Notes: generated by a model not told the origin, from the letters alone. A DNA stretch of 64,000 nt from Bacteroidota bacterium (GCA_016708785.1 JADJFC010000006.1:185411-249410); one strand, 5' to 3'; shown: positions 8,566 through 61,510, counted from the stretch's first letter. Numbers and translations: made by a program.

Positions 8566-10206
8566 TTATTTCACAACACAAAAATGCGCCGTCATGTTCA
8601 TATCGGGCCCATTTAACTTTATAAAATAATAACCGGAAATTAAATCTGAAGTATTCAATACTACATGACCGTCTGATGAATTATTCAAACTGATAATCTT
8701 TACCAAACTTCCCATTGAATTAAAAACAGAGAGACGACCTTCATTATTTTTAGTAGCAGGAAGAATAATATTTAGCTCATCAGTTGCCGGATTCGGATAT
8801 ACTGAAAGCAATCCTTGCTGAATATTAGTAATATTGGTCAATGTTCCGTTCGGGCGGATTCGGCTTGCACAAATATTTTCCATGTTCTCTCTCCATATTG
8901 CTGTTACAGTGCCATCCAATGAAGGAACAAGAACATAGTCATCATAAAATGGCAAATTGCTAATGTTAACTGCAATGCCATTTTGTTGCCATAATATAGA
9001 ACTGTCCGGTGCAATTTGTTGCGCACGAAATTTACTTCCAACAGTAAAAGTTGCCACAACATTTGTTCCTACTTTAACAAGTTTCGGGTAAGGGTTATAA
9101 CTTGGCAAATCTGAAAGAAGGATCCCGTCCGGTGTCCATAATGAATTTCCGGCAGTATCCAGTTTTTGCATATACACTTTGTAATTAGCTGCTCCAAGAC
9201 GAGGATCATTCCAGATAACAGAAATGGTGTCGTTGGAAATAATTACCTCAGGGTTTGCTTTATAACCGGAAACTGTACAAATTGGTTTGGCACCGCCTCC
9301 GCCCCAAGGCAAATTACCATCAGGGTTGATCTTTGCAATGTAAACATCGCCCGGACTGTTACTATCCCAAACAACGTAAGCATTTGTATCATTATCACAA
9401 ACTACTTTCCATTGATCTCCTCCTCTACCTCCTGCAACAGTAGATATATCAACAGGAGAGGAAATAGTTGAATTTCCTGCTTCATCAAAATGTCCGACAA
9501 AAATATGCGAACCTAAACCACCTGTGGCAGTGGCTACATAGAAACCATTTTTATGATCAGGAGCAGTACGATAATAATATCCACCGCCAGAGTAACTTTT
9601 TGAATTAAGAGGGTAAACCAAATTTCCTGTATTGTCAATATTATTAAAACTGTAATAAGTATTTCCTCCACTTGGAACGAGACCAAAAGTTATTGTTGCT
9701 CCATTATCATTTGAAAAAATATCCAGGTTATCAGTAGAAACATAAATTATACCCCCTTGTTTATTTCCAACAAGAGTTGCAGACGACCATTGAGGAGTAC
9801 CGGCATTATCAAAATATTGACAAAGTAAAGTATCACCACCAACACCAAAACCTCCTTGAATCCATGCCAATAAAATTCCGGATTGCCATTGGATTGCATC
9901 CATCAACCAGATCTCTTTGCCGGCAGCTTGTGTGAAAAATTTGCCATTTGACGCCCACTGAGGATTTCCTAATGAATCAAGATGTTGCCCATATATAGAT
10001 GAACCTACTAATCCATCGCGTTTATCAAGCCAGAAAGAAAACGTTCCTCCATTTCCATCACTGAAAGCACGTACTGCTCTTTGTGACCCGGTTGCATTAC
10101 ACACAAAATAAGTTTGAGTGGAATCATCCAAAAATTGGGCGTTCACATTGTATGTTACCAATGTCAAAATGAAGATTAAAACTGTCGAAAGTAGATTTTT
10201 TTTCAT
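8566..10206 (-). CDS. T9SS-secreted protein with beta-propeller-like repeats and type-A C-terminal sorting domain
   Basis: 546 aa. Signal peptide ending NAQ. Repeated W/G-rich blades. C-terminus VYPNPATDELNIIL...GYYFIKL matches the T9SS CTD. Confidence 0.75.
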   Translation of the reverse strand: MKKNLLSTVLIFILTLVTYNVNAQFLDDSTQTYFVCNATGSQRAVRAFSDGNGGTFSFWLDKRDGLVGSSIYGQHLDSLGNPQWASNGKFFTQAAGKEIWLMDAIQWQSGILLAWIQGGFGVGGDTLLCQYFDNAGTPQWSSATLVGNKQGGIIYVSTDNLDIFSNDNGATITFGLVPSGGNTYYSFNNIDNTGNLVYPLNSKSYSGGGYYYRTAPDHKNGFYVATATGGLGSHIFVGHFDEAGNSTISSPVDISTVAGGRGGDQWKVVCDNDTNAYVVWDSNSPGDVYIAKINPDGNLPWGGGGAKPICTVSGYKANPEVIISNDTISVIWNDPRLGAANYKVYMQKLDTAGNSLWTPDGILLSDLPSYNPYPKLVKVGTNVVATFTVGSKFRAQQIAPDSSILWQQNGIAVNISNLPFYDDYVLVPSLDGTVTAIWRENMENICASRIRPNGTLTNITNIQQGLLSVYPNPATDELNIILPATKNNEGRLSVFNSMGSLVKIISLNNSSDGHVVLNTSDLISGYYFIKLNGPDMNMTAHFCVVK

Positions 10207-37774: not shown

Positions 37775-40126
37775 TTAATTATTACGTATTAATTGAATTG
37801 TGCCATGTAACTCCTGCACATCCTCGCCAAATATACGATAGAAATGGACTTTACACGTATAAAAATATACACCACTCACACAATCTGCTTTGGATTCCAG
37901 GTCTTTCCCATCCCAAAGCACATCTTTATTCGTTGTTTCAAAAACAATTTTTCCCCAACGATTGAAAATTTTCATTTCAATACTCTTCACATTTTTATAT
38001 GGCGGACAATTTGTTTCCTGATAATCAACCGCAGTAGTGCTATCGCATGGGTGAAAAATATCGTTGACACCATCTCCATCAGGAGTAAACACCGATGGCA
38101 AAACATATTGACGACAAGTATCAACACAAACTGCGAGAGCATTTATCGTTTCATTTCCCACAGAATCTACACCGGTAACTTTATAACATCCTGAAACAAT
38201 TTGAAGATTCGAATGAAGGTAGGTAGTATCATTTGGATCAAGTATAGAATCGATGCGCTCAAATACTGATGAATCCTGAGGGGAATAATAAATATAATAT
38301 TTCAGAACGTCATCTGAGCATAAATGATTCGGATTGATCCATGAAAGGAAATTCGAATTATCGAAACAATCCGACATTACTGTCAATGTAGTAGCGCATG
38401 GCGGAACATTGTCAATTGGTATTCCACACAATATTTGTGAACGATTATATAATGGTGTCGGAATTCCATCTCTTGAATAACTTCCCCGCGATTTAACGTA
38501 GTAACAATACTGTGTACCATTCGCCAAACCGGTATCTGAAAACTGCTTTACGCTTACTGTTGCAATTGAATCATAGATCAAAGTTGCAGGATTCAATCGA
38601 TAAATATCATAAGTGTTATTCGTCCAGGGAACATATTCTTCCCAAGTTAAATTCAATCGATTGTCCGTCGGACTGATGCTCAGAAATATTGTAGATGCAT
38701 TTGTAGAACTTCCTTTTAACGTTGGCACTCCGGCATTGTTATAATACAGATCGACTTTGTATGACCATGGACCAGCAACTGTGTTGATTGCATTATCTGT
38801 AATGGTTGTATCATCCAAATCATTCAACACAGCGAATTGGGTGAAGTTAGTTCCAAAGAAGTCAGATGAATGATATACTCTGTATTCGTGCGGTCCGGGG
38901 AATTGAATCGTATCTAATTCAGTTGGCTTACTCCAATCAACATAGACAGAACCTGTTGTTGCATCCGTTGTTAACACATCAGCATGGGTAAGTACAGGAA
39001 GGTCTTTCCTCAAAGTAGCACAAGTTTGAGGCGATGCACAACTTTCTGAACCGTCTGCAAAAAATGCCGTCACCAAATAACAGTACTCTACTCCTATTGC
39101 AAGACCTTGTCCGTAATTATTGTCGACATAATTTACCGAATCAATACTCTGCAGCGTTGCAAGCAATTGATAACCGGTATAAGAAGGTGCGCCATTGTCA
39201 CAAGGGCAATCAATTGTTCCAGGGTAGTTATTTATTCTTCGATAAACATAATAGCCGATCGCTTCTGCGCAAGGCGATGTACTCCAATTCAACTCAATTG
39301 CATTTCCATTTGCGACAGCAGTAACTGATGTCGGTGCCGGAGCAATGACACGAATGATTGTCGATCTCAATGCTACCAATGAGATACTATCCACCGGTTG
39401 TACATCGCGAGCTTTGAACTGCGCTACATAAGGACTTGAACGAACGTGATGACATTTTGCATCCCAAACAAAACGACCAATTACTGTATCGTTACTTGCA
39501 ACAGTAATTCTTGAATAGGTAGCAGCGTCACCACCAACAAGTGAATCAATAAAGACAGCGCCGTAAGCTGAGATCTCAACAAGATCTTGATCCGGGTCGA
39601 TGTTTGTCACATCAAAAGTCAAGGTCTCACCAGCAAGAACGCAAGTGTCAGAAACAGTTTCAATGAATGGGGGATTATTTGTACACTGTCCAATCAGGAT
39701 CTGCATATCCCTGCGAACATAACCGGCATACCTTCCCTGCTTATATTGTTTGATATGAAAAGCAACATTGTATTCGCCGGGTGTAACCGGAGAATTCCAA
39801 ATGAGATCTCCCGTAAAAGGATCCAGTGAAAATGACACCGACGCATTTGGAAATGTGTAACCGGGAATAGGCACGCCACCATCGCCGGCACATTGCACTA
39901 ATTCATAAGCGAGACTATCACCTTCCGGATCGAAAGCTCCGGGGTTATGAATAAATATTCGGTTCACACATCCTTTGTCAATTGGAGGATAAGTCAGAAT
40001 CGGTGAGCTGTTTGGTCCGAGGTAAGGATTAATGATCAGTTCGCTTTCAACATAAAATGGAACGTCAACAGAGTTTGGAATATTTATTACGCCTTCATTT
40101 CGATTCGGATCTGTAAAGCGTATCAA
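37775..40126 (-). CDS. Large T9SS type-B (CHU_C / gliding-motility-associated C-terminal domain) surface protein, main body
   Basis: 783 aa. The C-terminus YVLPSVFTPDGDGVNDIFHP...IFNRWGKIVFETTNKDVLWDGKD... is the CHU_C/T9SS type-B sorting domain. Ig-like repeats lie upstream. TTG start. A frameshifted N-terminal fragment at 40189-40452 belongs to the same gene. Confidence 0.8.
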   Translation of the reverse strand: MIRFTDPNRNEGVINIPNSVDVPFYVESELIINPYLGPNSSPILTYPPIDKGCVNRIFIHNPGAFDPEGDSLAYELVQCAGDGGVPIPGYTFPNASVSFSLDPFTGDLIWNSPVTPGEYNVAFHIKQYKQGRYAGYVRRDMQILIGQCTNNPPFIETVSDTCVLAGETLTFDVTNIDPDQDLVEISAYGAVFIDSLVGGDAATYSRITVASNDTVIGRFVWDAKCHHVRSSPYVAQFKARDVQPVDSISLVALRSTIIRVIAPAPTSVTAVANGNAIELNWSTSPCAEAIGYYVYRRINNYPGTIDCPCDNGAPSYTGYQLLATLQSIDSVNYVDNNYGQGLAIGVEYCYLVTAFFADGSESCASPQTCATLRKDLPVLTHADVLTTDATTGSVYVDWSKPTELDTIQFPGPHEYRVYHSSDFFGTNFTQFAVLNDLDDTTITDNAINTVAGPWSYKVDLYYNNAGVPTLKGSSTNASTIFLSISPTDNRLNLTWEEYVPWTNNTYDIYRLNPATLIYDSIATVSVKQFSDTGLANGTQYCYYVKSRGSYSRDGIPTPLYNRSQILCGIPIDNVPPCATTLTVMSDCFDNSNFLSWINPNHLCSDDVLKYYIYYSPQDSSVFERIDSILDPNDTTYLHSNLQIVSGCYKVTGVDSVGNETINALAVCVDTCRQYVLPSVFTPDGDGVNDIFHPCDSTTAVDYQETNCPPYKNVKSIEMKIFNRWGKIVFETTNKDVLWDGKDLESKADCVSGVYFYTCKVHFYRIFGEDVQELHGTIQLIRNN

Positions 40127-44446: not shown

Positions 44447-45700
44447 CTAATTCTTGATAAACTTTCGTACTTCAGTTTTATCTTTGGTTTGAATGGAAAC
44501 AAAATAGGTTCCACTCGAAAGTGAAGATAGATCAATTTTAGTTTTTGGTTCAGAAATGTTCAATAGCAACAATTCCTTTCCTGAAATATCATTGATTCTG
44601 ATTTTATCAATTTTACCTACATTATTTTTCAATGCAATACATAGTTCCGTTGAAACGGGGTTGGGATAAATTTCAAATGAACGTTCTATCTCACTTACTG
44701 TTGTATTCAAATTGAAAGTATTCGGCAATGGTTCAGGATCAGAAGGAGTGCAACCAAGTTGTGTGAATAAGAAATTACTTACGAAGCGGACTGTGGTGTC
44801 CATATATGCAACGTTAGAATAATATGGAACATGTCCAGCACCGAAATAGGTATACATCTGATTGGTTTGCCCAATTGAATCTCCATAGGCGGCAATGGAA
44901 TAACTTCCATCCACTTGCATAATTGGGAAAATGCCAAGTAGATTAATTACATCTGTTGCATAAGGAACAACATCATCAATGGTTCCGTGCATAGACACAA
45001 AAGGAACATCCGTAATTTTTACCAACGTCTTATTGCCCAAAGCACCACAAAGATTTACGACAGCATTTACATCTGATGAGTAACCACTGTTTCCGCTATT
45101 CCCTTCCAGATCGCCTAAAATACTAGTGTCTATTGTCGCAGGCAATTCACTATATTCATTGAGGTATGCAAGATGTAATGCTGTAAATGCACCGGCAGAA
45201 CTTCCGCCTGCATAGATAATATTTGGATCGATCTGATAATCATTTGTTGTTGCAGCGTCTTTTCTGAAAAAACGTATTGCCGCTTTCATATCCTGAACAG
45301 CTCTGTAGACAGTAGCTGTTGTATTAGCTTCATTATACGGGAATGCAATTCCTAATCTGTAATTGATCGTAGCGCAAACATATCCGCGTTTTGCAAAATG
45401 TTCGCAAAGTTGTTGAACATCCAGATCATTTTTTGTTCCGCTTAAAAAACTGCCGCCATGAGCCCAAACAATCAATGGACGCGCAGCCATTGTATCGCCT
45501 TGCGGCTGATAAATATCCATTGTTAAAATAGTATTCACTCCATTGTAATCGAGATTCGCACCGAAGACTACATCATTCGTTGTATCTAAACTTGAAAAAA
45601 CTTCTGTATCGAATCGTGCTGACGAACAATCGACAAGTTGCGCACTCGATGTAAAATATCCTGAAAACAATATGGTGATAAGCGTAACGATTTTTTTCAT
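44447..45700 (-). CDS. T9SS-secreted alpha/beta-hydrolase (esterase/lipase-like) with type-A CTD
   Basis: 417 aa. Signal peptide. HGGSF oxyanion-hole region and GGSSAG nucleophile elbow (GxSxG). C-terminal IYPNPVSTELCIAL...GTYFVSIQ CTD. Paralog of 47218-48774. Confidence 0.75.
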   Translation of the reverse strand: MKKIVTLITILFSGYFTSSAQLVDCSSARFDTEVFSSLDTTNDVVFGANLDYNGVNTILTMDIYQPQGDTMAARPLIVWAHGGSFLSGTKNDLDVQQLCEHFAKRGYVCATINYRLGIAFPYNEANTTATVYRAVQDMKAAIRFFRKDAATTNDYQIDPNIIYAGGSSAGAFTALHLAYLNEYSELPATIDTSILGDLEGNSGNSGYSSDVNAVVNLCGALGNKTLVKITDVPFVSMHGTIDDVVPYATDVINLLGIFPIMQVDGSYSIAAYGDSIGQTNQMYTYFGAGHVPYYSNVAYMDTTVRFVSNFLFTQLGCTPSDPEPLPNTFNLNTTVSEIERSFEIYPNPVSTELCIALKNNVGKIDKIRINDISGKELLLLNISEPKTKIDLSSLSSGTYFVSIQTKDKTEVRKFIKN

Positions 45701-47217: not shown

Positions 47218-48774
47218 TTATTGCATCGAAACTCGTTTGCTAACGATTCCTTTATCAGTAGTAACGCGAACAATATAGATTCCATTGCTAAGATTTCCTC
47301 TCAGGAACGTTGATGATGATCCAGACAAATTATCTTTCTTCCAGATCGATCTTCCTGTGATATCAGAAAGTTCTACTGTTTTAATAGTCAGATTTGTTCC
47401 GTCTGCTGAAACAGTGAATTGAGAAGTTGAAGGGTTTGGATAAACCGCAACAATTTTATTCAATATTGATTCAGAGATTCCATCAGGAAGTCCTAAACAA
47501 TAAACGATACGTGGATTTACATAGTTTTGAATTGTATCGATATATGCTAATGCTTTCGCTTTAGACATATCAGGATTAGTTCCTAAACCGTTCATATAAG
47601 CTTGAGTTCCTGCAGAAGCTGAAAGACCTACTGCTTGAGCATAAACTGTCAAAGCAGTTGAATCATACCACTCCCAAGGACCGGCTTCGCCCGGTGCAAA
47701 TGGAGGTGTTGGACGAAGGAATGGGAATAGTCCATCTTCACCGCCATTATTATTATTCGCTGCCAATGTATATGGATCTGTGAAGCCAGCTAAATTGAAG
47801 CAAGCATTATTACCTAATAAATTTGATTTTGTGATCACAGTTTGGCTACCACTTACATCAACAACGAATTGAGGAGGTGTTGTTGGCACGTAAACCGGAC
47901 CATCTCCATAAGGAGCAAATGGATCGTTTGTAACATGGAATGCAACCATTGGAGCATCACCTGCTTCTAACCAAGAACTATCACCTAGTGCACCACCCAT
48001 GTTCAATACGAAACGAATGTTTGAGCTAAATCCAACGTGATTGTTTGGGTTATTAAATTGTGGAAGTCCACCGTAACCATCGAAATCACCTAATATAGCT
48101 TGATTCACATATGGCTGACCGATTTGGAAACCATAAGTTGCATTGTTAGTATTCGATAAGAATTTCGGAAGTTGAATTTCTGACGGCTTGTCTAATGTTG
48201 CATAAGCCATTGCAATGTATCCACCTGTACCTTGTCCTGCAAGTATGATATTATTCGTATCAACTGCATATGTATTTCCTGTATTCGAAACATCTTCGTA
48301 GAAAAAACGAACACAAACTTTTGCATCTTGAATTGCACGATACACGGCTTGTAATAAAGTTCCTGTACGTACATCCTGATCAGGATCTGTTGGAACCCAA
48401 CCTTGACGGTATGTTGCATTTGCTACTACATAACCGCGACGAGCAAATTGAGTACACATTTCTACAGCTGCAGAATCACTTTTTCCTCCTGTAGGATTTT
48501 GGTTAAACACAGCTGGGACAAAACTTCCTGTGTGAAGATAAACGATCAGCGGCCGAATTGGCTCAACATCACCAACTGGCTGATAGATATCCATTTTAAG
48601 ATCCTGTGCAGTTGGTGTTCCTGTAGGGAAAATGGTAATGTTGTTTCCGTAAGTTACGTTTGGTGTTACTGATACATCAGAAAACACTTCTGATAAATAA
48701 CGTTGGGCATTCATAGTTTGCGCAGTGAAAAGCGCAAATGCCAACATCGATAGTTTTAGTAGATTTTTTTTCAT
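47218..48774 (-). CDS. T9SS-secreted alpha/beta-hydrolase (esterase-like) paralog with type-A CTD
   Basis: 518 aa. Signal peptide ending NAQ. Core collinear with 44447-45700 (LHTGSF, RRGYVVANATYRQG, GQGTGG). C-terminus VYPNPSTSQFTVSA...GIYIVRVTTDKG CTD. Confidence 0.75.
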   Translation of the reverse strand: MKKNLLKLSMLAFALFTAQTMNAQRYLSEVFSDVSVTPNVTYGNNITIFPTGTPTAQDLKMDIYQPVGDVEPIRPLIVYLHTGSFVPAVFNQNPTGGKSDSAAVEMCTQFARRGYVVANATYRQGWVPTDPDQDVRTGTLLQAVYRAIQDAKVCVRFFYEDVSNTGNTYAVDTNNIILAGQGTGGYIAMAYATLDKPSEIQLPKFLSNTNNATYGFQIGQPYVNQAILGDFDGYGGLPQFNNPNNHVGFSSNIRFVLNMGGALGDSSWLEAGDAPMVAFHVTNDPFAPYGDGPVYVPTTPPQFVVDVSGSQTVITKSNLLGNNACFNLAGFTDPYTLAANNNNGGEDGLFPFLRPTPPFAPGEAGPWEWYDSTALTVYAQAVGLSASAGTQAYMNGLGTNPDMSKAKALAYIDTIQNYVNPRIVYCLGLPDGISESILNKIVAVYPNPSTSQFTVSADGTNLTIKTVELSDITGRSIWKKDNLSGSSSTFLRGNLSNGIYIVRVTTDKGIVSKRVSMQ

Positions 48775-48894: not shown

Positions 48895-51710
48895 CTAATT
48901 CAAAGTGACCAAAATTGAAGCATAAGCCAATCGGCCTACCAGCGGCCCACCATAAACTTCATAATGCATGTTATTCAACAAGTTGGATGCGCCTACTTTA
49001 AAGACAGACTTCAATTGCGGAACTTTTTTACTGATTTGCATGTCTACAACTTCGTAACTTTCTATCTCGCCGGTAAATTGCGGCGAGCCTTCAAAGAGAA
49101 ATCCCTGTACCCATTTGTAGTTGATGTTGTAACTCCAGTTTGAAATTTTGATCTTGTTGAAAAGCATTGCTTCAATATCTCTTCCACCAAATCCAAGATT
49201 GTATTTATTACGCGGTGTATTGTATGCAGGAATAATTGGATCATCGGAACCTTGTTTGTTGAGTTCATTCCATGAATAATTTCCATTGATGCTAAAATAT
49301 TTTCCAATGAAATAATTTAGTCCAATACTGAATCCTTGCGAACTTACTTTGTCTTGTGAATTGCTTGCAATTCTGAACACATCGTTCAACTCAAGGAAAT
49401 CACCACCAAATGGCGAAGTACTTGTAGTAACATCTGCTCCTACAATATAGCCGATAAAATCTGTATAGACACTATAGTAATAATTTGCATCGGCATAAAG
49501 ATTATCAGTCAATGAAGCACGATAACCAACTTCAATCGTCTTTACTTTTTCAGGCTTCACCGGACCAATATTGAAATAACTTAATTTATCCAGATCAGGA
49601 AACCCTGACAAATAATCTCGCAAAGATGGAATAGTTACAAGCGAATCGTAGCCCGTAATATTTCCAAGAAGTTTTGCTCGCCCAACATTGTAATATAAAT
49701 ATTGATCTGTTAAAGTTGGATTTCTGATCGCTGATGAAAACGAAAGTCGTACAACATTTTTCGGGTCAATCGTATAGACCAATGAAGCAGCCGGACTTAG
49801 CAGTAAATCGAAATTCTGATTTTTATCGGCACGAAGCGTAAGGTTGATCTTTAACTTATCCTCTAACACCTTTTTTTCCAGCCCGCCATAAAATCCAAAT
49901 TCATAACTCTCAATTTTGCGTCCTGAAGTATCACTGAAAATTGTACCATCACTTTGCGGAAGATACTTTCTGTAGTTTCCTCCAATTATTACATCTCCAA
50001 ACTTCGGAGTAAGTTTATACTCACCTTGAACGTGTACCAATCGCGACTTATCATAGAACCTTGATCCTCCTTCTGTAAATGATCTGCTGGATGTAATACA
50101 TTGAAGAGTGAATCGAATCGTTGTGTTCCAGGCTCGTAAAACGGAACTGCTTTTTGAGAAACACTGGTAAAATCATCTGCATATTCACGAGAATTATTAT
50201 GATAGAGCTGAAGTGAATCATAATAATTAGCCAGCAGAAATGGATTAATTGATGCAGTATATTCAGCAAATAACTGATCGTAATTCGGATCACTTGGCGA
50301 AGGTGCCTGAGGGTACCCTGGAAAATTGCTTTCCCTGACAAAATATCGATTCTGTGACAAAGACCAAAAACCAACATAGTTAGTACTCCATACATAGTCA
50401 GATTTTGATGCCTGTTGCAAAAGCAATGCAGTAAAATATGCATCATATGATTTACCTGCATCTTCATTCGTAGTATACGCTCTGATAAAGAACTTATTTT
50501 CTTTTCTATATTCAATCCGATTTTGAAAAAACAAAATGTCTTTCAAACTAAATCTGTTGTCGCCTTGATAAACAGTAGTACCTGCCCCAAAAGCAGAATT
50601 GAAAATTATTTCATTCTTAGATTTTGTTTTGTAATGAAGCGCCAAAGATGATTTAAAATTTTCTGTATTGTAATCGACCAAGTCATTTTCAGCATATCCC
50701 GTACGATAATAAGTCATAACACCCGGTCGGATCCTTGGAACTGAATTATAATTACTTGTTGCATAGTATTCATCGCCATAAACATTTACAGCATCATAAC
50801 CACCCGGATTTCCCGGACCATCAGGTGAGTCCGGAGTAGCGCTCATATTATTTGCCTGCCAGTCATTTGCTTTCATGTAGAAGAGATTCAATTTGTATGC
50901 GAATCGTTCATTACCGCTTTTATCTTTAAAAACTTGCGACCAGCGCACAGCAGTTTCGACAAGATTTCTTTCGCCGACTTTAAATGAAACTTCCAGTCCC
51001 GGTTTTACAAACGGACTTCTGGTCGTCATTGCAATTACACCATTGAATGCATTCGGACCATAATACGCAGAACTCGCGCCTGCGATCAGATCGACTTTCA
51101 ATACATCAAGTTCACTTGACCCCAAGAAATTTCCCAATGAAAAATTTAATCCCGGCGATTGATTATCGACTCCATCGATAAGCTGCAATGAACGCACCGG
51201 TGAAGTGCTATTGAATCCGCGGGTATTGACAATTGTAAATCCGAGTGATGCACTCGTAAGATCGACACCTTTCAATGTTCCTAATGCTTCGTAAAAAGAA
51301 TTCTGTGCGCTTTGTTTGATGGCAATCATGTCGATACTCTCAACAGTAAGCGGCGCTTCTTTTTGTTTTTCGGAAACGCGACTACCTGTAATGGTCACAT
51401 CTTTCAATTCAACTTTCTTGGAAGACAATTTGAATGTGACTGGCTTTGAAAAATCGGTAACGACAATTTCGGAAGAACTGTAACCAACCGATGCAACTAA
51501 AATGGTAACCGGGGCTTGTTGCCCGCTTACCGACAATTCAAATTTACCGTCAATATCTGTGCTAGTCCCAATAGAAGTTCCTTTGATAGACACAGATGCA
51601 CCGATGATACTTTCGCCCGTAGAATTATCTTTGATTACGCCGCTGATCTTTTGGGCATTTGCTGCAATTGAAACAAATAACAAACCAACCACTAGTAGAA
51701 TATTCCGCAT
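48895..51710 (-). CDS. TonB-dependent outer-membrane receptor (CarboxypepD_reg N-domain + plug + beta-barrel) with apparent frameshift at about 49989-50046
   Basis: ORF 49989-51710 carries the signal peptide, the carboxypeptidase-regulatory-like domain (ISGVIKD...GASVSIKGTSIGTSTDIDGKFEL) and the plug (TonB-box region, NTRGFNS). ORF 48895-50040 is barrel strands in another frame. The two overlap by 52 bp and both are open there. Confidence 0.7.
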
Positions 51711-52006: not shown

Positions 52007-52996
52007 ATGATGCTTTACAATTATTCTTCTGCACTCTTTTTAACTGTCAGATATGCATATATTTTACTTATTCTCACCGTTAATCCAATTTCTGCATTTT
52101 CACAAAATTATGTTCCGAATCCGAGTTTTGAGGAAATCGATACTTGTCCAAGTGATTTAAATTATTTCGAGAAAGCTGTTGGCTGGAGAAGTATTTTAAA
52201 TACTCCAGACTTATTTAACAATTGTTCCCAGGGGAGAGTTTCAATTCCAACAAATCAATTTGGTTATCAAGAATTAAAGCCGAATAGTGGTTTTAGCTAT
52301 GCAGGTTTAGCAAGTGGTATTGGCTCAAGTGGTCTATATAACGAAATAATAGGAATTAAACTAAATGAAACATTAATTTCAGGACAAAGGTATTTTTTAT
52401 CGTTTGACTTTTCATCTGGTTTCAATGTTAATGGTCAAGTAAATTGTCAATGTTTTGTTAATAAGCTGGGTGTAAAATTTCTAACTCATTTCGAAGATAC
52501 AAATAATATTTCCCAAACAATAATTAATAATACTGCAACTTTATTTTCAGATTCTGTATTAAGCGACACATCAAACTGGTTGACATTTTCAGGAAGCTTT
52601 ATAGCTGACTCTTCATATTCTTATTTATTGATAGGTAATTTTTTCACACAAGACTCCATGACGTTTAATTGCATTGATGTATCTTCTTCCATTTCATATA
52701 CATATTTAGATAATATTTGTCTATCACAGAATTTAAATGATTGCAATGGTATAATTGCTGACACTAAATTGTGCTCGTTTAACTTGTTTCCAAATCCAAG
52801 TTCAGGTAAATTTTCAATACACAGTGATGAGCAATATTTCAATAATAGTATCGCTAAAGTTTATAATTCAATTGGAGAACTAATTTTAAAGCAAAATATG
52901 AAAGGAGGTGAAAATATTTTCGATTTTAGTAATTTGAACAGTGGACTTTATTTAATTGTATTGAATGAATGTATTCTTAAAATAACTTTATACTAA
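52007..52996 (+). CDS. T9SS-secreted hypothetical protein (AT-rich) with type-A CTD
   Basis: 329 aa. Signal-like N-terminus. C-terminus LFPNPSSGKFSIHS...GLYLIVLNE CTD. Confidence 0.65.
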   Translation: MMLYNYSSALFLTVRYAYILLILTVNPISAFSQNYVPNPSFEEIDTCPSDLNYFEKAVGWRSILNTPDLFNNCSQGRVSIPTNQFGYQELKPNSGFSYAGLASGIGSSGLYNEIIGIKLNETLISGQRYFLSFDFSSGFNVNGQVNCQCFVNKLGVKFLTHFEDTNNISQTIINNTATLFSDSVLSDTSNWLTFSGSFIADSSYSYLLIGNFFTQDSMTFNCIDVSSSISYTYLDNICLSQNLNDCNGIIADTKLCSFNLFPNPSSGKFSIHSDEQYFNNSIAKVYNSIGELILKQNMKGGENIFDFSNLNSGLYLIVLNECILKITLY

Positions 52997-53006
52997 ATAA
53001 AAAACT

Positions 53007-55844
53007 ATGAAAACAAATTCTTATGTCCAAAAATTAATTTTATGTGTCTTAGTCAGTTTAATAAATTATTCTTGTTTTGCACAATGGAAGATTGGCATAA
53101 ATGGGTTGGGTGATATGTGGGGAGAAACGGATCCTGCTAACAAAATTGACGCAATCGGTATTGGCGATTATTTAGGGAATGCTACTCAACCTGCCGCAGC
53201 CCTTGACATTACTATTCCCTATCTATTCAATCAAGGTTCAATGCTTGTGAACCAAGGCGAAGCGATTCGTTCTTCTGCTGCAACAGATTTTAACCACACA
53301 TGGAAAATGTATACATTTCCTGAAACCGAAAAATTTCGGGTAGAAAATCCAAGTAATAGCCCTGACATCAATCTAAGTGTAATGCAAGAAAAGGGCATAC
53401 TGCGCTTACATACAACTGATGGGCTCTATGGTTTAGAAGAGCGAATGCGATTTACTTATGGCTTGGGTGGGCCTTCGGGAAATATCGGCACAACGAAAGC
53501 AGCCATAAGTTACGGCTCCGGTTTTCTTCCAATAGACCAACCTCAAGCTATTTTGAATCTTGGACATCGTTCTAATTTAGGATCTTTAGGTGCACGTACT
53601 TGGATGGACGTCGGTACTTTTATGGTAGATGCAGAAGATCAAATGTATGTTGGGATAAAAGATGATCGCGGCACTGGTGGTGCTGATCGTGGTACTGCTG
53701 TAATTAATTGGGGCGATAACCCTACATCCGGATATGGACCGGATATGCTTAAATTTATTTTCACAAGCGGTTTAAATGCAAGTTCTTCTTCTGATGCTGA
53801 AAAAGTGGATGGTTTAGAAATAGCGCGAATGACTGCATATGGAAATATGGGAATTGGAAATATCTGGAACTTAACCAATATTTTGCCAAAACGAAGGCTA
53901 GACATTTGGGACAATGCGGGTAGCCCAACCTCCAACCCCGCACATGTGAACGGACCGCAATTGCGACTAACAGAAACAGGAAGGACAACCCTCACTGGAG
54001 GGAGATGGACAGAGCTTGAAACAACAGGATTGGGTGATTTTTATATTCATCCATTCGATGGTACTACGAACCGAAATGTTGGAATAAATACGAATATACC
54101 AGGTAATACTCTTGAAATAAAAAGTAATGCCGGTACAGCAATTCCGGGATCAAGTGGTTTGCGTTTTACTTATCTAAATACAACTTCAATTCCTCTTGTC
54201 ACAAATCCATTTGGCAGCACAAGTCCTGCTGTATTGAGTGTAGATAATCAAGGCAATGTTGTTTTAGTTAAAGATGAAACAGTTTCTCCAACGAGCGGAC
54301 TAAATACATGCTCATCAGGAATTCCGGACAACTTTGTTTTGAAAATGGACGTTAGCACAACAAACACAGTTTGTAAAAGTATTGTTTATGATGATGGAAC
54401 AAACGTTGGTATAGATGTTCCGAGTTTATTGCCCCTTCAAAAACTAGACGTCAATGGTAATGTTAATGTCAGAGGTACTGCAATAACAAGCGGACTCTAC
54501 TTCAATAATGCCAAATTTGTTTCTACCGGTGGTTCATCAAGTTCAAATGTTTATTTAGGCACTTCTGCAGGACCGACTACTGCTGCACTAACAGGATATA
54601 GTAATATTTGTATTGGTGGAAATACAGGAACAAGTATGAATTCTTCCGAAACAGATAATATTATGATTGGACAAAATGCCGGAACAAATTTGAGTGGAGC
54701 CGGTGTTGGAGATAACACTTTGATTGGGCGAAGTGCAGGTTTAAATGTTACAAATGGTCTGGAGAATACATTCATTGGCTATAACGCAGGAACGAATTAT
54801 TCTTCAAATCATCATAATACAGCTATCGGAAGCTTCGCAGCTTCATCAGCTACTGGAGTTACAGGCGACAATAATACGTTTATTGGTTATCAGGCTTCAA
54901 CTACTAACGGGACTGCTTTTAGCAATAGCACAGCAATTGGAGTTTATTCATCTGTCGATGCAAGTGATTGTTTAGTTCTTGGGAATGTTAATGGTGTAAC
55001 TCCTACCAATGTCGGTACAAGAGTTTTAATTGGATACACTAATCCTTCAACTGCAGTTAATACCGATTTTCGATTGTATGTAAATTCTGGTGCCAATGGA
55101 CATGCAGGATTTTTTAATGGCGATACTTACAATGCGGGAACTTATTATCCTTCCGATAGAATTTTAAAAATGAATATTCAACCCATTCAAAATTCATCAG
55201 ATATAATAAATCGACTTGAACCTAAGACATATAATTACGACCAAATAAATCATCCCGGAATTAAATTGCCTTCCGGAGATCAATATGGATTAATTGCAGA
55301 AGATTTAGACATGATTCTGCCTGGACTTACAAAGCAATTTACTGCCCCTGCTGTTAAGGATGCTTTAGGAAATATCATAACACAAGAAGAAACGTTTAAA
55401 GGAGTAAATTATACACCCTTAATAAGTTTATTGATTCAAGGCTTCAAGGATCAGCAACAACATATAGATTCGTTGATGATGCGATTAAATAATTTAGAAG
55501 TTGCTATGAACGCGTGCTGCAGCAGCTCTTCAAGCCAACGGACATCTGTTAACAGCATTGACATTGAATTAACTTCGGAAAATTCAATCATACTGAATCA
55601 GAATGACCCGAATCCTTTTGCTGAACAAACAAGAATTTCGTTCAATGTTCCAACTGATGTAATGGAAGCAAAAATTATTTTCTTCGATAACTCGGGACAT
55701 ATTTTGCAAACCGTAAAAATAAACGAACGCGGCGCAGGACAAATAAATGTGTATGGTGAAAAGTTGAGTAGCGGCATTTATAGTTACACACTAATCGCTG
55801 ACGGGAAAGTCATCGATACGAAAAAAATGCTTGTGACAAAGTAA
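53007..55844 (+). CDS. T9SS-secreted tail-fibre-like protein: N/G/T-rich IGxxAG beta-helical repeats + peptidase S74 intramolecular chaperone domain + type-A CTD
   Basis: 945 aa. Signal peptide (CFAQ). About 15 repeats of N[TI]xIG.xAG (NIMIGQNAGT, NTLIGRSAGL, NTFIGYNAGT, NTAIGSFAAS, NTFIGYQAST, STAIGVYSSV). Then SDRILKMNIQPI...YGLIAEDLDMILP...VNYTPLISLLIQGFKDQQQHIDSL, matching the endosialidase/tail-spike C-terminal chaperone domain. Final 90 aa DPNPFAEQTRISFNV...GIYSYTLIADGKVI is a T9SS CTD. Confidence 0.7.
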   Translation: MKTNSYVQKLILCVLVSLINYSCFAQWKIGINGLGDMWGETDPANKIDAIGIGDYLGNATQPAAALDITIPYLFNQGSMLVNQGEAIRSSAATDFNHTWKMYTFPETEKFRVENPSNSPDINLSVMQEKGILRLHTTDGLYGLEERMRFTYGLGGPSGNIGTTKAAISYGSGFLPIDQPQAILNLGHRSNLGSLGARTWMDVGTFMVDAEDQMYVGIKDDRGTGGADRGTAVINWGDNPTSGYGPDMLKFIFTSGLNASSSSDAEKVDGLEIARMTAYGNMGIGNIWNLTNILPKRRLDIWDNAGSPTSNPAHVNGPQLRLTETGRTTLTGGRWTELETTGLGDFYIHPFDGTTNRNVGINTNIPGNTLEIKSNAGTAIPGSSGLRFTYLNTTSIPLVTNPFGSTSPAVLSVDNQGNVVLVKDETVSPTSGLNTCSSGIPDNFVLKMDVSTTNTVCKSIVYDDGTNVGIDVPSLLPLQKLDVNGNVNVRGTAITSGLYFNNAKFVSTGGSSSSNVYLGTSAGPTTAALTGYSNICIGGNTGTSMNSSETDNIMIGQNAGTNLSGAGVGDNTLIGRSAGLNVTNGLENTFIGYNAGTNYSSNHHNTAIGSFAASSATGVTGDNNTFIGYQASTTNGTAFSNSTAIGVYSSVDASDCLVLGNVNGVTPTNVGTRVLIGYTNPSTAVNTDFRLYVNSGANGHAGFFNGDTYNAGTYYPSDRILKMNIQPIQNSSDIINRLEPKTYNYDQINHPGIKLPSGDQYGLIAEDLDMILPGLTKQFTAPAVKDALGNIITQEETFKGVNYTPLISLLIQGFKDQQQHIDSLMMRLNNLEVAMNACCSSSSSQRTSVNSIDIELTSENSIILNQNDPNPFAEQTRISFNVPTDVMEAKIIFFDNSGHILQTVKINERGAGQINVYGEKLSSGIYSYTLIADGKVIDTKKMLVTK

Positions 55845-55855
55845 TGCATTCGATC

Positions 55856-55918
55856 GTTTAAAAAGTTTAATGGGTTTAAGGTGGGCGCAGCACTTTAAAC
55901 CCATTAAACACTTTAAAC
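55856..55918. repeat. Family H element, second copy, forming a 17-bp-stem hairpin between convergent genes
   Basis: GTTTAAAAAGTTTAATGGGTTTAAG gtgggcgcagca CTTTAAACCCATTAAAC ACTTTAAACC. Confidence 0.75.
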
Positions 55919-55932
55919 CATACTTCAACTTG

Positions 55933-58900
55933 TTATTTACTTATCACAAGCGTCCCAGTCTTCCTCGACTTAGCATTCGTATACGTATAAAAATAAACCC
56001 CCGGAACCAGCTCCGTAGTTTCAACCCGGAACAAATGCTCACCACTGTCTAAGTTTCCATCGACAACTGTTTGAACTAGTTTGCCGGTAACATCAAAGAT
56101 CTTAACTGACACGGATTGACTTTCATTCGTTACAAATGCAAAGACTGCATAATCGCCGGCAGGATTCGGATAAACGTATAATGGCGAATTGTTTTTTATT
56201 TCTGAAGTTGATGTTCCAGGCTCGAGAACGATCACTGAATCACATTTCACACATGAATTTGAATCGGTGATGCAAATCATATATGTTCCTGCTGTTAATC
56301 CGGTCACAATTGATGTTGTGAAATTTCCCGGCGTCCATGAATAAGAATAGGGCGGGAATCCTCCTCTGACCGTTGCATCTGCTGTTCCATCAGCACAGGA
56401 AATACAACTTGCATCGGTATGCGAAGTGATCAAACTCAATGAATCATCTTGTGTGAATGTAAATTGTCTGTTCTCAATACAACCTAAGGCATCAGAGATC
56501 GTCACATCTATAGTACCTGAACAACCATTCGAAATTGTTTCTGTGGTTTCGCCGTTACTCCATAAATATGAATAAGGTGCCGAACCTCCACTTACACTCA
56601 ACTCTGCACTTCCTGTACACTCTGCAAAACAAGTATGACCGGAAGACGTTGACGTGACTACAACAGGATCAGGCGACTGCACTAATGCTGATGCAATTGC
56701 TGTGCATCCATGATCGTCTGTTAGAAGTACGCTATATGTTCCGGGTGATAAATTCGTTGCTGAATCTGTTGTTTGTCCTGAAGGTGTCCACAAATAAGTA
56801 TATGGCATTGTTCCGCCACCTACACTTGCAACAATTCTTCCATCGGTATTTCCAAAGCAACTGACATCATAAGGAATCATCAATGCTCCTAATGGCGATG
56901 GCTCCGGAAGGATCACGCCTATGCTATCCTGACATCCCAGATTATCAATTACTACAACAGAATAAATTCCACCAAGAATTTGTGTTGCTGAATTTGTATT
57001 TGAAACATCAGGCAACCAGGTATAACTATATGGTCCTGTTCCTCCTGTTGTGGAAAGAACAATTGATCCATCGTCTGTTGAATTACATGATGTCTCTACC
57101 AATGATGTTACATTTAAATCAGGCAATGATGATGTAGTGACTGTAACGCCTAAATTTCGTGAACATAAATTAGCATCTGATACTACAATCGTATAATTTC
57201 CAGGCGACAATCCGGTTGCTATTGCACTTGATGAGACATTCGGTGTCCATGAAAAATTATATGGAGCATTACCACCTGATGGCGAAAGATTTACTTCTCC
57301 ATTTGCTAGTCCACACGTTGAATTTACAACGGAAGAGATCACCGCCAATCTTGTTGGCTGCAATACAGTTGCCGATTGTGTCGTTGAACAATTGCGACTG
57401 TCTGTTACTCTCACAGAATAATTTCCTGCAAGCAGATTTGTTGCAATAGAATCTGTTCCGCCGGAAGGTGTCCACAAGTATGTATATGGCCTTGTTCCTC
57501 CTGAAGCATTTGCTTCCAAGCGGCCATTATTTCCGCCGTAACAACTAACACTGTCAGCTGTTGAAACAATTGAAAGTTGATCGGGCTGAAGAATTTCTAC
57601 TTGCTGGATCGTAGTACATCCATTGTCATCATTTATTTCTACAGAATAAATTCCGGCTTGTAAATTTGTTGCGACAGAATCAGATCCGCCAACAGGCGAC
57701 CATGAAAATGTCATCGGCGCTTTTGCTCCGGTGACACTCACTGTTGCTGCTCCATTCGAACCGCCAAAGCAACTTACACTGACATTATTTGAAATCGCTA
57801 CAGTCATTCCACTTGCACTATTTACAATTACGGATTGCTCAAGAGTACATCCACGTTGATCTGTTATCGTCACAGAATAATTACCTGCTACAATATTATT
57901 TATCGCCGCTGTTGTTTGTCCGTTAGGTTGCCACAAATAAGTATACGTTCCCGTTCCACCTGAAGCATTAACCTGAGCGCTTCCTGTAGCCGATGCACAA
58001 ATGGAAGTTGTTGAAGATGTTGTTGCTGAAAGTGCAGCAGGATTCGTCAATGTCACTCCTGAATTCACTGAACAATTAAAACTATCTCTAACGGTTACAT
58101 TATATGTTCCTGGTGCAAGTCCTGAGATGGTACTTGATGTTTGTCCACCGACATTCCATAAATAAGTAAGCGTACCTGTTCCTCCTGATGAAATCACTGA
58201 AGCACTTCCATCACTACCATTGTTGCAATTCACAGGAGTGGAAGAAACAGTTGCATTGATAACAGGAGCTTGCGAAATATTAACCGACTCTGTACGTGAG
58301 CAATTATTTACGTCGGTGACAGTGACAGAATAAGAACCGGCAGAAATATTATTGATCGTTGATCCGGTTTGATTTCCCGGCAACCAGTTGTATTGATACG
58401 AACCTATTCCACCACTTACAGTTGCTTGTGCTGAACCTGTTGATCCACCATAACATCTCACATCGGTTTCCGTAACTGAAACAATGATCGGTGTAGGTTG
58501 TGAAATGACAATGTTCATGCTCGCTGGACAACCTGTTACATCTGTTGCTGTCACGGTATAATTTCCGGCTAATAAATTTGTTGCTGTTGAATTTGATCCT
58601 CCTGATGGCGACCAACTATAAGTGTATGGTCCACTGCCTCCTGAAACTGTAACTGATGCTGATCCTCCGGCTTGATTGAAGCAGGTTGCATTCGTAACAT
58701 TGTTCAAGGCAATGATCGGTGATGATGGATTTACAATATTTACAGTTGTCGTCTTCGAACAACCACCTGCATCAGTGACGATCACAGAATAACTTCCGGA
58801 GCACAAATTTGTCGCAGTAGCTGTTGTTTGTCCATCAGACCATGCATACGTAAATGGCGAAGTACCGCCACTCACATTTGCAGTTGCCTGTCCGGCGCAA

Positions 58901-60966
58901 CCCGATGCATCGCATGGCGCATTCACGGCACTTGCATTTACCGTTAGTAATGCAGGTTGAGTAATCGTTGCAGTTGCTGTTCGCTTACATCCTATTGCAT
59001 CGGTAAATTCTACGGTTTGTATTCCGGCACACATGCCACTCAGAGTATCGTTATCACTGCCATTATCCCATTGATAGGTTTTCTGATATGGCGAAGTTCC
59101 GACAGCGACTAATTGTCCATCGCATGCATTCAGACAAGAAACATTTTGCTGAACAATATTCAATGAACAATTACATCTTCCCGGCATATTTGAATCGAGC
59201 CACGATAATCGTCTGCTCATCCAATTTTTCAGATTCTGAATTTCTCCTGCATAAGTTGATGGTTGAGGCGAAGGATTCGGCCACACATATGTTCCAAGAA
59301 TTGGCCATTGATTAAAATTCCAGTCTTTCGATTCATTCAACAAATTTGCAATGGAATCTATTACGCCATTTATATGCGACAGACTTAAAACGTTGTTTCT
59401 GTAATCTGTCCAGCGGCATTTCATCTGATTGGTATAATTCGTATCCTGTTGCAATTTTTGCCACCAGAAAGGAACCTGCCAGCTATCGCCTGTACATGAG
59501 AATAAATATGCCCAGCCGGTTGTATCTGTTGCATCACAATAATTCGCATTTCCATAGGCAATATCGTAATCCCAAACCGGACCGGCTTTCAAAGTCTTTT
59601 CTTTGTCTTTGTACAAATACGAACTGATCCGATATCCATCGACATTCTTGCTCAACTCATTCGAGAAAAAATAATCGATCCATGAACCGTTGCCGATAAA
59701 TTTCTGATAGCCTACAATTGAATCACGAAAATTATTTCCTGCCAAGGCGTTTTCAAAACTATCGACATAAGCCTTAATATATGCCTTTTGCGAAGGAACT
59801 ATACTGTCAGTTGAAGGATAGTCATATTGAATGAAAATATCCTGACCATTTGAATGATTGATTGGCGCATAAGCAGAAGTCCAGCCATCGCCACCACTCC
59901 CTGTTGTCTTATCGATCTTAACTATGTACCCTCCTGTTATATCCGGTGCAGTGATTTCCGTTCTTTCCAGCTTACTTATATCGACACGATTTTTATCGCG
60001 TTTCAGACTTTCCATAAAAACATATACTCCCCAGTATTGTCCATTGAGAACAACATCAACATATTTTGTTCGAACAGCGTAATGACCCATTTCATTTGCG
60101 AGTTGGTATGAAACAACATTTCTGCAAAATGATTTATCGGTATAATTTGCACTAAGGATCCAGTCGTGTTCTGAAGGCATTCCTAACAATGAAGTATCGA
60201 CATTCACTAAACCACTATTATCACGCGTTTCAAAACCAAAAGACTTTTTCGGAAACATTTGTGAACTGGAGCCTCTTACTTCTATTGCAATTTTACCATC
60301 GTAATTATTTGGAACATCAGACACATGATTTCTCAAACCAATTCCATTATCGATGATCTTCATATCGACAATGATCTTTGGATCATCAGGAATTGTTTGT
60401 CCATTTGTATTGATGATCACAATTGGCAATGAGGATTCCGTAAAAATAAATGTCAATGCAGGTGAATTACTGAATTTAATACTCCAACCCGTTAAAGATC
60501 CGGTGACACCGTTGTTAGAATCATCGATGACACGCAATTGCCATGTTCCATTTCCATTCTGGTTATTATTCACTCTCCAAAGATCTCCTTCGGGTTTAAA
60601 CGTTCCTGTGAAAGGCGCGCTTCCGGAAGTGATTGACGTACTTGCGCTATGCTTGAAAACAGTATTCGTGAAATTGTTTCCTGTACCACCGTTGTCAGTA
60701 GTCAGTTCGATCATTGTTCCATCAGGAGCAGCAAGAAAACAATCGATGTCGCGATCTGATCCATGTGAAATATTTATCGTTACGGATTCCAATCCATAAT
60801 TGAAATCGATTGGATTGGCAAGACCTGTAACAGGAATATTAAATCGTGATGTATCGGTCAATGTAATAATTGATCCACCGGAGCCTGTAAAAACCTGTGC
60901 ATTCAAACTATCCTTAGAAAAAAAGAATAGCAGAAATCCACATAAAAAAATCTTGAGTGTTCTCAT
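55933..60966 (-). CDS. Giant T9SS cargo: proprotein-convertase P-domain + CotH kinase-like domain + about 13 SprB repeats + type-A CTD
   Basis: 1677 aa. N-terminus INISHGSDRDIDCFLAAPDGTMIEL...GTWQLRVIDDSNNGVTGSLTGWSIKF is a P-domain. YTDKSFCRNVVSYQLANEMGHYAVRTKYVDVVLNGQYWGVYVFMESLKRD is a CotH block. Then Cys-rich about 70-80-aa repeats with VSGG.GPYTYSW..G.....AT.L.AGNYTVT.TD..GC (SprB repeat). The end YVYPNPAGDYAVFAF...GVYFYTYT is a CTD. Confidence 0.8.
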   Translation of the reverse strand: MRTLKIFLCGFLLFFFSKDSLNAQVFTGSGGSIITLTDTSRFNIPVTGLANPIDFNYGLESVTINISHGSDRDIDCFLAAPDGTMIELTTDNGGTGNNFTNTVFKHSASTSITSGSAPFTGTFKPEGDLWRVNNNQNGNGTWQLRVIDDSNNGVTGSLTGWSIKFSNSPALTFIFTESSLPIVIINTNGQTIPDDPKIIVDMKIIDNGIGLRNHVSDVPNNYDGKIAIEVRGSSSQMFPKKSFGFETRDNSGLVNVDTSLLGMPSEHDWILSANYTDKSFCRNVVSYQLANEMGHYAVRTKYVDVVLNGQYWGVYVFMESLKRDKNRVDISKLERTEITAPDITGGYIVKIDKTTGSGGDGWTSAYAPINHSNGQDIFIQYDYPSTDSIVPSQKAYIKAYVDSFENALAGNNFRDSIVGYQKFIGNGSWIDYFFSNELSKNVDGYRISSYLYKDKEKTLKAGPVWDYDIAYGNANYCDATDTTGWAYLFSCTGDSWQVPFWWQKLQQDTNYTNQMKCRWTDYRNNVLSLSHINGVIDSIANLLNESKDWNFNQWPILGTYVWPNPSPQPSTYAGEIQNLKNWMSRRLSWLDSNMPGRCNCSLNIVQQNVSCLNACDGQLVAVGTSPYQKTYQWDNGSDNDTLSGMCAGIQTVEFTDAIGCKRTATATITQPALLTVNASAVNAPCDASGCAGQATANVSGGTSPFTYAWSDGQTTATATNLCSGSYSVIVTDAGGCSKTTTVNIVNPSSPIIALNNVTNATCFNQAGGSASVTVSGGSGPYTYSWSPSGGSNSTATNLLAGNYTVTATDVTGCPASMNIVISQPTPIIVSVTETDVRCYGGSTGSAQATVSGGIGSYQYNWLPGNQTGSTINNISAGSYSVTVTDVNNCSRTESVNISQAPVINATVSSTPVNCNNGSDGSASVISSGGTGTLTYLWNVGGQTSSTISGLAPGTYNVTVRDSFNCSVNSGVTLTNPAALSATTSSTTSICASATGSAQVNASGGTGTYTYLWQPNGQTTAAINNIVAGNYSVTITDQRGCTLEQSVIVNSASGMTVAISNNVSVSCFGGSNGAATVSVTGAKAPMTFSWSPVGGSDSVATNLQAGIYSVEINDDNGCTTIQQVEILQPDQLSIVSTADSVSCYGGNNGRLEANASGGTRPYTYLWTPSGGTDSIATNLLAGNYSVRVTDSRNCSTTQSATVLQPTRLAVISSVVNSTCGLANGEVNLSPSGGNAPYNFSWTPNVSSSAIATGLSPGNYTIVVSDANLCSRNLGVTVTTSSLPDLNVTSLVETSCNSTDDGSIVLSTTGGTGPYSYTWLPDVSNTNSATQILGGIYSVVVIDNLGCQDSIGVILPEPSPLGALMIPYDVSCFGNTDGRIVASVGGGTMPYTYLWTPSGQTTDSATNLSPGTYSVLLTDDHGCTAIASALVQSPDPVVVTSTSSGHTCFAECTGSAELSVSGGSAPYSYLWSNGETTETISNGCSGTIDVTISDALGCIENRQFTFTQDDSLSLITSHTDASCISCADGTADATVRGGFPPYSYSWTPGNFTTSIVTGLTAGTYMICITDSNSCVKCDSVIVLEPGTSTSEIKNNSPLYVYPNPAGDYAVFAFVTNESQSVSVKIFDVTGKLVQTVVDGNLDSGEHLFRVETTELVPGVYFYTYTNAKSRKTGTLVISK

Positions 60967-61117: not shown

Positions 61118-61510
61118 CTACACCTCAAAAGCAAGAGCAGCAATAACTATCGTAGTACCTGCGAAAAGAGTCCCCTGTGTTTTTAGTCCGGAATAAATCA
61201 AAAAAGAAGAAAACGCCATTCCACTCATAATAATAACAAAAGCAAATATCACTCTTAACAAGTCAAGAGAGTGAATTCTAGAGTTGCTATTTTCAAAAAG
61301 ACTCATTCTTCTTTCATTAAAATTTATCCTTGCAGCTTGCTCTTGTTCTGCACGAGCTTTCAGCCAATTTACACATTCAGGATCTACTTCTTTGTACTTT
61401 GCTAACTCTGCAGCTTCAGGAAGAAAGCTGTCATCTGTTGTTTCTATATGTTCAATTGCAGATGTATTTCCCCTCTGAGCCGCCTTAATTTGACGAGAAC
61501 TCTTTCCCAT
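61118..61510 (-). CDS. Small membrane protein, DUF2335-like (two C-terminal TMS)
   Basis: 130 aa. Hydrophilic N-terminal half, then LLRVIFAFVIIMSGMAFSSFLIYSGL and LFAGTTIVIAALAFEV helices. Confidence 0.5.
   Translation of the reverse strand: MGKSSRQIKAAQRGNTSAIEHIETTDDSFLPEAAELAKYKEVDPECVNWLKARAEQEQAARINFNERRMSLFENSNSRIHSLDLLRVIFAFVIIMSGMAFSSFLIYSGLKTQGTLFAGTTIVIAALAFEV

Follow-up and report, generated by a model that had tools for sequence, protein, structure and literature searches.

A stalked CotH-fold protein of Bacteroidota predicted to be a surface-tethered phosphotransferase exported by the type IX secretion system

We analyzed a 64,000-nucleotide stretch of DNA from a Bacteroidota bacterium (GCA_016708785.1 JADJFC010000006.1:185411-249410; hereafter the window), in which a minus-strand gene at 55933..60966 encodes a 1677-aa protein composed of an N-terminal P-domain-like beta-sandwich, a CotH atypical-kinase-fold domain, 13 tandem SprB-type repeats, and a C-terminal domain (CTD) of the type IX secretion system (T9SS). 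We posit that this protein is a T9SS-exported, surface-tethered, spacer-held nucleotide-dependent phosphotransferase, a statement to which, taken as a whole, we assign a probability of roughly 0.55. Its parts are not equally secure: the domain architecture and export by the T9SS are highly probable, and the chances that the head, judged from its sequence, would be an active phosphotransferase carried on a spacer stalk are close to even. The open reading frame (ORF), which a sequence-only reading of the window had pointed out, is real; it starts at the first ATG past the upstream stop codon, is intact, and runs unbroken from the signal peptide to the CTD.

Domain assignments were judged against the curated cut-offs of Pfam, and each of the families named in the sequence-only reading scores above its cut-off, in agreement with predicted structure. 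The P_proprotein model matches residues 61-165 (38.2 bits against a cut-off of 21, E 1.6e-9), CotH (PF08757) matches residues 228-590 over all 322 profile positions (184.4 bits, cut-off 23.8, E 5e-54), SprB (PF13573) matches 12 stretches (322 bits, cut-off 28, E 1.9e-98), and Por_Secre_tail (PF18962) matches residues 1598-1675 (48.5 bits, cut-off 27, E 1.1e-12). The C terminus was also compared with NCBIfam, where it matches TIGR04183, the type A sorting domain (38.5 bits, cut-off 23, E 8.5e-10), and the family profile matches the solved T9SS CTDs 8glk, 8glj, and 8qb1. At the other end of the protein, a predicted Sec signal peptide contains a hydrophobic core and ends in LNA, followed by a Gln (Q24) that 50 homologues share without exception. 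Secreted proteins of Bacteroidota typically begin with Gln once the signal peptide has been cleaved off. The protein thus combines the two hallmarks of type A T9SS cargo, a Sec signal peptide and a type A C-terminal sorting domain. We considered and rejected an identity as a proprotein convertase or kexin-like subtilase: the P-domain beta-sandwich is present, but it directly follows the signal peptide, and a Pfam scan of the protein at E<=0.1 gave no Peptidase_S8 match. The label "subtilisin-like proprotein convertase family protein" that JGI attaches to homologues is therefore a misnomer, since no S8 domain precedes the P-domain.

An AlphaFold2 (AF2) model of residues 1-620, computed from an alignment with 50 homologues (predicted local distance difference test [pLDDT] 81, predicted template modeling score [pTM] 0.73), supports both the P-domain and a CotH domain with the atypical protein-kinase-like fold of Bacillus cereus CotH; the nearest non-CotH folds of the head include PI4K and Fam20 xylosylkinase. 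Residues were mapped by an hhalign profile alignment (probability 97.4) and by HMMER alignments to a B. cereus CotH sequence that we rebuilt from a frameshifted public B. cereus-group contig and whose numbering reproduces the published Y142 and W245 (PMC12189002), with residue roles drawn from PMC7821199 and PMC12189002. In this mapping, D443 is the catalytic Asp (D223 of B. cereus CotH, D228 of Bacillus subtilis CotH, D166 of protein kinase A [PKA]), D466 of the WDYD motif is the metal-binding Asp (B. cereus D246, B. subtilis D251, PKA D184), W465 is the adenine-stacking Trp (B. cereus W245), and S448 occupies the position of B. cereus N228 and PKA N171, which is Asn in characterized CotH proteins. 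The substitutions D228Q and D251A inactivate B. subtilis CotH (PMC7821199), and adenine is sandwiched between the aromatic residues Y142 and W245 in B. cereus CotH (PMC12189002).

Conservation was assessed in 146 representatives of 50%-identity clusters that are 33-66% identical to the query, approximately 142 of which align at the active-site positions. D443, S448, K453, and D466 are conserved in 142 of 142 aligned representatives, W465 in 141 of 142, and the G345-G346-Y347 motif in 141 of 141; Y347 is probably the equivalent of the stacking Tyr142, although the alignment is locally of low confidence there. The active site is under strict purifying selection. The strict invariance of the catalytic residues in so diverged a sample argues for a working active site, and the equally strict retention of the substituting Ser favors a clade-specific shift in how metal is coordinated over decay into a pseudoenzyme. 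The earlier description of the head as kinase-like stands with one reservation, the invariant Ser at the position of PKA N171. The broader proposal, in which a long stalk carries a kinase-like module that is either secreted or anchored at the surface, appears reasonable.

The stalk has a repeat period of 75-77 aa and consists of 12 canonical units and one degenerate first unit, all of which align in register with C15, G21, W38, G54, D62, and C66 invariant across the 13; a hidden Markov model (HMM) built from the units also finds 13, the number given in the sequence-only reading. Each unit carries two invariant Cys residues, and a single unit is modeled by AF2 as a six-strand beta-sandwich (pLDDT 94) whose nearest solved folds in Foldseek are phage immunoglobulin (Ig)-like decoration domains, PKD domains, and the stem of GhpA. 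All of these matches are weak (E>0.01), including that to the GhpA stem fragment 9flw (34% identity, E 0.019). Pairwise identity among the units is only 24-49%, so the array is old and could not have confused an assembler. Relative to the head, the stalk is rich in Ser and Thr (27.7% versus 17.2%), and it is acidic (60 D+E versus 20 K+R). Of the O-glycosylation motif of Bacteroidota, D[ST][AILVMT], 13 copies were counted where 8.2 +/- 2.7 were expected, an excess that is not significant. When three stalk units served as the query of a homology search, no protein found exceeded 400 aa and many were partial; in these, SprB-type units accompany either type of CTD as well as other heads.

The head on its own is widespread. 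A word-indexed search with residues 1-620 yielded, at E<=1e-10, over 5,200 proteins; the best matches are almost all approximately 690 aa in length, 51-58% identical, and composed of P_proprotein, CotH, and Por_Secre_tail. When 1.84 billion representatives of 50%-identity clusters were scanned exhaustively with HMMER, 12,472 matched at E<=1e-10 and 3,299 at E<=1e-30. A relative is encoded in at least 586 species-level Bacteroidota genomes, nearly all of them metagenome-assembled genomes (MAGs) from water, groundwater, and wastewater, and the carriers include Flavobacteriales (e.g., Fluviicola), Chitinophagales, Saprospiraceae, Sphingobacteriales, and Lentimicrobiaceae. Among 50 aligned members, CotH and the P-domain are found in all 50 and the CTD in 49, whereas only two have SprB repeats. 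The exact window protein is deposited at NCBI as MBK6988943.1 with the annotation "CotH kinase family protein"; at least 10 independent assemblies contain either this same 1677-aa sequence or members of >=90% identity. The stalked gene is a variant of a large, uncharacterized, automatically annotated family of T9SS-exported CotH-fold proteins and, as a genome feature, is not rare. The suggestion that the combination of domains is unusual was thus overstated: it does not hold for the head, which is very common in Bacteroidota and already annotated, and it holds for the insertion of the SprB stalk, which is the minority form.

The short proteins of approximately 690 aa, which are annotated as either "CotH kinase family protein" or "subtilisin-like proprotein convertase family protein," have heads orthologous or paralogous to that of the window protein (43-58% identity over residues 1-600) and the same signal peptide ending in Q, invariant residues, and CTD type, but they lack the stalk, and their CTD directly follows CotH. 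By comparison, 2-13 SprB-type units are inserted in the window protein and in the relatives L004-L007, P0002, P0004, and P0279. Three of these, from other species-level MAGs (L004, L005, and L007), are 1675-1683 aa in length and have exactly 13 units and heads 70-73% identical to the query; L006 has eight units, and P0002, P0004, and P0279 have fewer. The stalked orthologues are syntenic, lying between a TonB-dependent-receptor-like gene and a pair of genes for a biotin-lipoyl protein and an M1 peptidase. Among the stalked orthologues, the stalk is far more diverged than the head, and units at the same array position are 45% alike, versus 35% for units at different positions. Elsewhere in the family, the space between a related head and a CTD is filled by PKD (P0285, P0290), Ig_7 (P0299, P0311, P0422), or lamin-tail (P0323, P0423) domains. 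Taken together, the interchangeability of beta-sandwich modules and the retention of unit number while sequence drifts point to a spacer function for the stalk.

Other architectures and arrangements were observed among the relatives. P0003 (1004 aa, from a 5.46-Mb ENA contig) has two complete tandem CotH domains without a P-domain, followed by a proline-rich TIPPDT linker and a T9SS CTD. In P0281 (5764 aa), P0321 (4243 aa), and P0406 (3651 aa), 10-13 separate stretches match the P-domain region of the query (residues ~32-170), which suggests that these proteins may hold arrays of P-domain-like modules. A 4.96-Mb JGI contig (L001, 8001-12316) encodes two short P-domain/CotH/CTD paralogues in tandem, and a few kilobases upstream of the pair are the genes for a giant SprB-repeat CHU_C protein and its PorP/SprF protein; L002 and L042 each have two copies of the head-family gene.

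From the architecture we infer the following route and arrangement. The Sec signal peptide would direct the protein to the periplasm, and the type A CTD would then take it across the outer membrane via the T9SS. For type A cargo, the PorU/PorV/PorZ/PorQ attachment complex removes the CTD and joins the new C terminus to anionic lipopolysaccharide (LPS) (PMC11205867). If the window protein follows this usual route, its CTD would be removed and the new C terminus would be located at the cell surface, which would place the C terminus proximal to the cell and the P-domain/CotH head distal. In the head, the P-domain beta-sandwich is predicted to pack on the CotH domain and may serve as a stabilizing or target-binding module, and the head as a whole would act as a nucleotide-dependent phosphotransferase on an extracellular protein, glycan, or lipid. 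The 13 Ig-like SprB-type units, which probably contain disulfides, would act as a spacer that holds the head approximately 45-50 nm from the outer membrane, assuming 13 domains of ~3.5-4 nm each, as is typical of Ig and PKD domains.

We are cautious about this reading given several observations that weigh against it. Little ATP is available in the periplasm or beyond the cell, which makes the phosphate donor doubtful and its source the main difficulty. Where PKA has N171 and B. cereus CotH has N228, all 142 clade representatives have Ser, and metal coordination must therefore differ from that of characterized CotH proteins. When the loci of short and stalked homologues are compared, no conserved neighbor gene points to a substrate: the gene neighborhoods of the short homologues P0028 and P0072 are completely different, and the stalked orthologues have only the housekeeping flanks described above in common. 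A literature search on CotH and type IX secretion gave nothing relevant and no experiment on any T9SS CotH protein, and one on CotH and Bacteroidetes gave nothing on function. Finally, sequence does not discriminate between anchoring and release after secretion.

These points leave room for other explanations. One that we regard as unlikely is that the CotH head has no catalytic role and instead binds ligands or serves as an adhesin, presented by the stalk to particles, polymers, or other cells; the CotH invasins of Mucorales, which bind host GRP78, have been proposed to work in this way, and such a role would fit the extracellular location. However, the ~142 diverged representatives keep the catalytic Asp pair, the Trp that stacks on adenine, and the GGY motif invariant, as expected of an enzyme and not of a binding surface, and the invariance of the substituting Ser suggests functional replacement over decay. 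It is also rather improbable, in our judgment, that the protein is a soluble, released exoenzyme whose SprB-type array mainly binds substrate or matrix (e.g., floc polysaccharide) and does not form a rigid spacer. Many type A CTD cargos of gliding Bacteroidota do go into the medium, the Ser/Thr-rich and acidic composition of the stalk would suit such a role, and annotations frequently assign SprB, PKD, and Ig_7 modules to adhesion or binding. A role in length or spacing nevertheless accounts better for the retention of 13 units while unit sequences drift to ~45% identity and for the replacement of the array by unrelated types of beta-sandwich in other lineages, and cargo with a type A CTD has an established route of attachment (PMC11205867).

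Misassembly, with repeats collapsed or expanded, and decay into a pseudogene deserve mention as possible origins of the long ORF given that tandem repeats are prone to misassembly and a nearby TonB-dependent-receptor-like gene appears frameshifted, but both are ruled out by the 24-49% identity among units, the occurrence in at least 10 independent assemblies, the three syntenic orthologues with 13 units, and the intact ORF. Returning to a tethered phosphotransferase, we can also imagine a more specific version of it, which we consider quite improbable and offer as speculation: these proteins may be ecto-enzymes in which Ser replaces the Mg-binding Asn and which use a donor other than cytosolic ATP or non-protein acceptors (surface glycans, LPS, or lipids), the stalked forms being contact-range "reach-out" enzymes that act on neighboring cells or the floc matrix with 13 domains as a molecular ruler.

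The spore-coat protein kinase CotH of Bacillus (B. subtilis; B. cereus, PDB 5jd9 and 5jda), which is ~15-20% identical to the window protein, is a single domain of ~360 aa located in the mother-cell cytoplasm with Asn at the PKA N171 position, whereas the window protein is predicted to be exported, has Ser at this position and inserts with conserved Cys residues (aa 474-500), and additionally contains the P-domain, the 13-unit stalk, and the T9SS CTD. Similarity to the Fam20 kinases (the protein kinase Fam20C and the xylosylkinase Fam20B), which work in the ATP-supplied Golgi lumen, is structural and distant, and nothing points to shared ancestry below the superfamily level. With respect to the stalk, the gliding adhesin SprB and GhpA, both T9SS cargos, have the same type of repeat and the same order of N-terminal head, disulfide-bonded Ig-like stem, and C-terminal T9SS signal, but they are ~6000 aa in length with adhesin heads, in contrast to the 1677 aa, 13 units, and enzyme-like head of the window protein. 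SprB has a type B CTD and a PorP/SprF partner, and GhpA is a heptamer. We rejected an identity as a SprB orthologue given the type A CTD (TIGR04183, PF18962), the lack of a CHU_C match, the length of 1677 aa, and the absence of PorP/SprF among the flanking ORFs examined. GhpA, the grappling hook of Aureispira, offers a precedent with a resolved structure and consists of an N-terminal functional head, a stem of disulfide-bonded Ig-like repeats, and a T9SS signal (bioRxiv 10.1101/2024.01.29.577165). Extracellular CotH domains are also found in the dockerin-CotH proteins of bacterial and anaerobic-fungal cellulosomes and in Mucorales invasins, where they have no settled function (PMC12484212; PMC9973265). 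These proteins resemble the window protein in deploying CotH outside the cytoplasm, on a scaffold or the cell surface; however, they belong to other phyla, use a dockerin or a glycosylphosphatidylinositol (GPI) anchor in place of a T9SS CTD, and lack the P-domain and the SprB-type stalk.

Table 1. Features of the stalked CotH gene and of the intergenic region past its stop codon (window coordinates).
Feature	Position	Strand	Remark
Sec signal peptide, aa 1-23 (MRTLKIFLCGFLLFFFSKDSLNA)	60898..60966	-	predicted cleavage before Q24
N-terminal P-domain-like beta-sandwich, aa 24-166	60469..60897	-	without attached protease domain
CotH atypical-kinase-fold domain, aa 167-598	59173..60468	-	
Catalytic-loop and metal-binding segment, aa 441-468 (NVDGYRISSYLYK...PVWDYD)	59563..59646	-	includes D443, S448, W465, D466
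Stalk of 13 tandem SprB-type Ig-like units of ~76 aa each, aa 600-1582	56221..59169	-	
Type A T9SS C-terminal sorting domain, aa 1598-1675	55942..56175	-	Pfam and NCBIfam
Long hairpin between convergent genes	55856..55918	-	15 nt past the stop codon

The features of the gene are listed in Table 1. The hairpin past its stop codon has a predicted folding energy of -28.2 kcal/mol (z -6.1; 0 of 200 shuffled sequences equally stable) and a CUUUUU run 3' of the stem, and it is probably a terminator. A scan for sigma-70 promoters and terminators, using a model not built for Bacteroidota promoters, found no excess over shuffled sequence, and an Rfam scan of the window found no RNA family.

The window is dense in genes for T9SS cargo (8566-10206, 37775-40126, 44447-45700, 47218-48774, and 52007-52996), which encode one 783-aa CHU_C (type B CTD) protein and four proteins with Por_Secre_tail, including two BD-FAE esterases in tandem; in all, Por_Secre_tail is present in at least four window ORFs besides the stalked gene and CHU_C in one. 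No T9SS core genes are present in the annotated parts of the window, and no PorP/SprF gene was found among flanking ORFs of >=80 aa at 50-64 kb, the Pfam scan covering ORFs of >=100 aa at 52.0-55.8 and 61.1-64.0 kb. The convergent gene at 53007-55844 (+) encodes a 945-aa protein with a Peptidase_S74 intramolecular-chaperone domain (aa 716-773, E 2.8e-9), a type of domain found in phage tail spikes and endosialidases, and its C terminus resembles a T9SS sorting domain by eye but is under the Pfam threshold. Both this gene and the adjacent Por_Secre_tail gene at 52007-52996 are absent from the orthologous loci L004 and L007, and the pair therefore appears to be an insertion beside the CotH gene. 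The TonB-dependent-receptor-like gene at 48895-51710 (-) is split into overlapping ORFs (48895-50040 and 49989-51710), whereas its orthologues are unsplit (L004, 8938-11688; L007, 11126-13843); the split reflects a frameshift, a pseudogene, or a sequencing error. Between the biotin-lipoyl protein and CotH genes, a 130-aa ORF at 61118-61510 (-), predicted to have a hydrophobic segment near its C terminus, gave no match in Pfam and has no counterpart at the orthologous loci L004-L007.

Extracellular CotH-fold proteins are abundant in the T9SS cargo of Bacteroidota, in cellulosomes, and in fungi, and this locus offers a well-defined case in which to study what such domains do, including their substrates and the source of their phosphate donor. 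The Bacteroidota clade has kept both catalytic Asp residues and the adenine-stacking Trp, and probably also Y347 as the second stacking aromatic, and in its catalytic loop the replacement of Asn by Ser is fixed. The same head was set on different beta-sandwich stalks independently in several lineages, here on 13 SprB-type units whose number is conserved. The conserved residues and the variation in the stalk define a construct (aa 24-599) and mutants (D443, S448, and D466) for the first biochemical work on these proteins.
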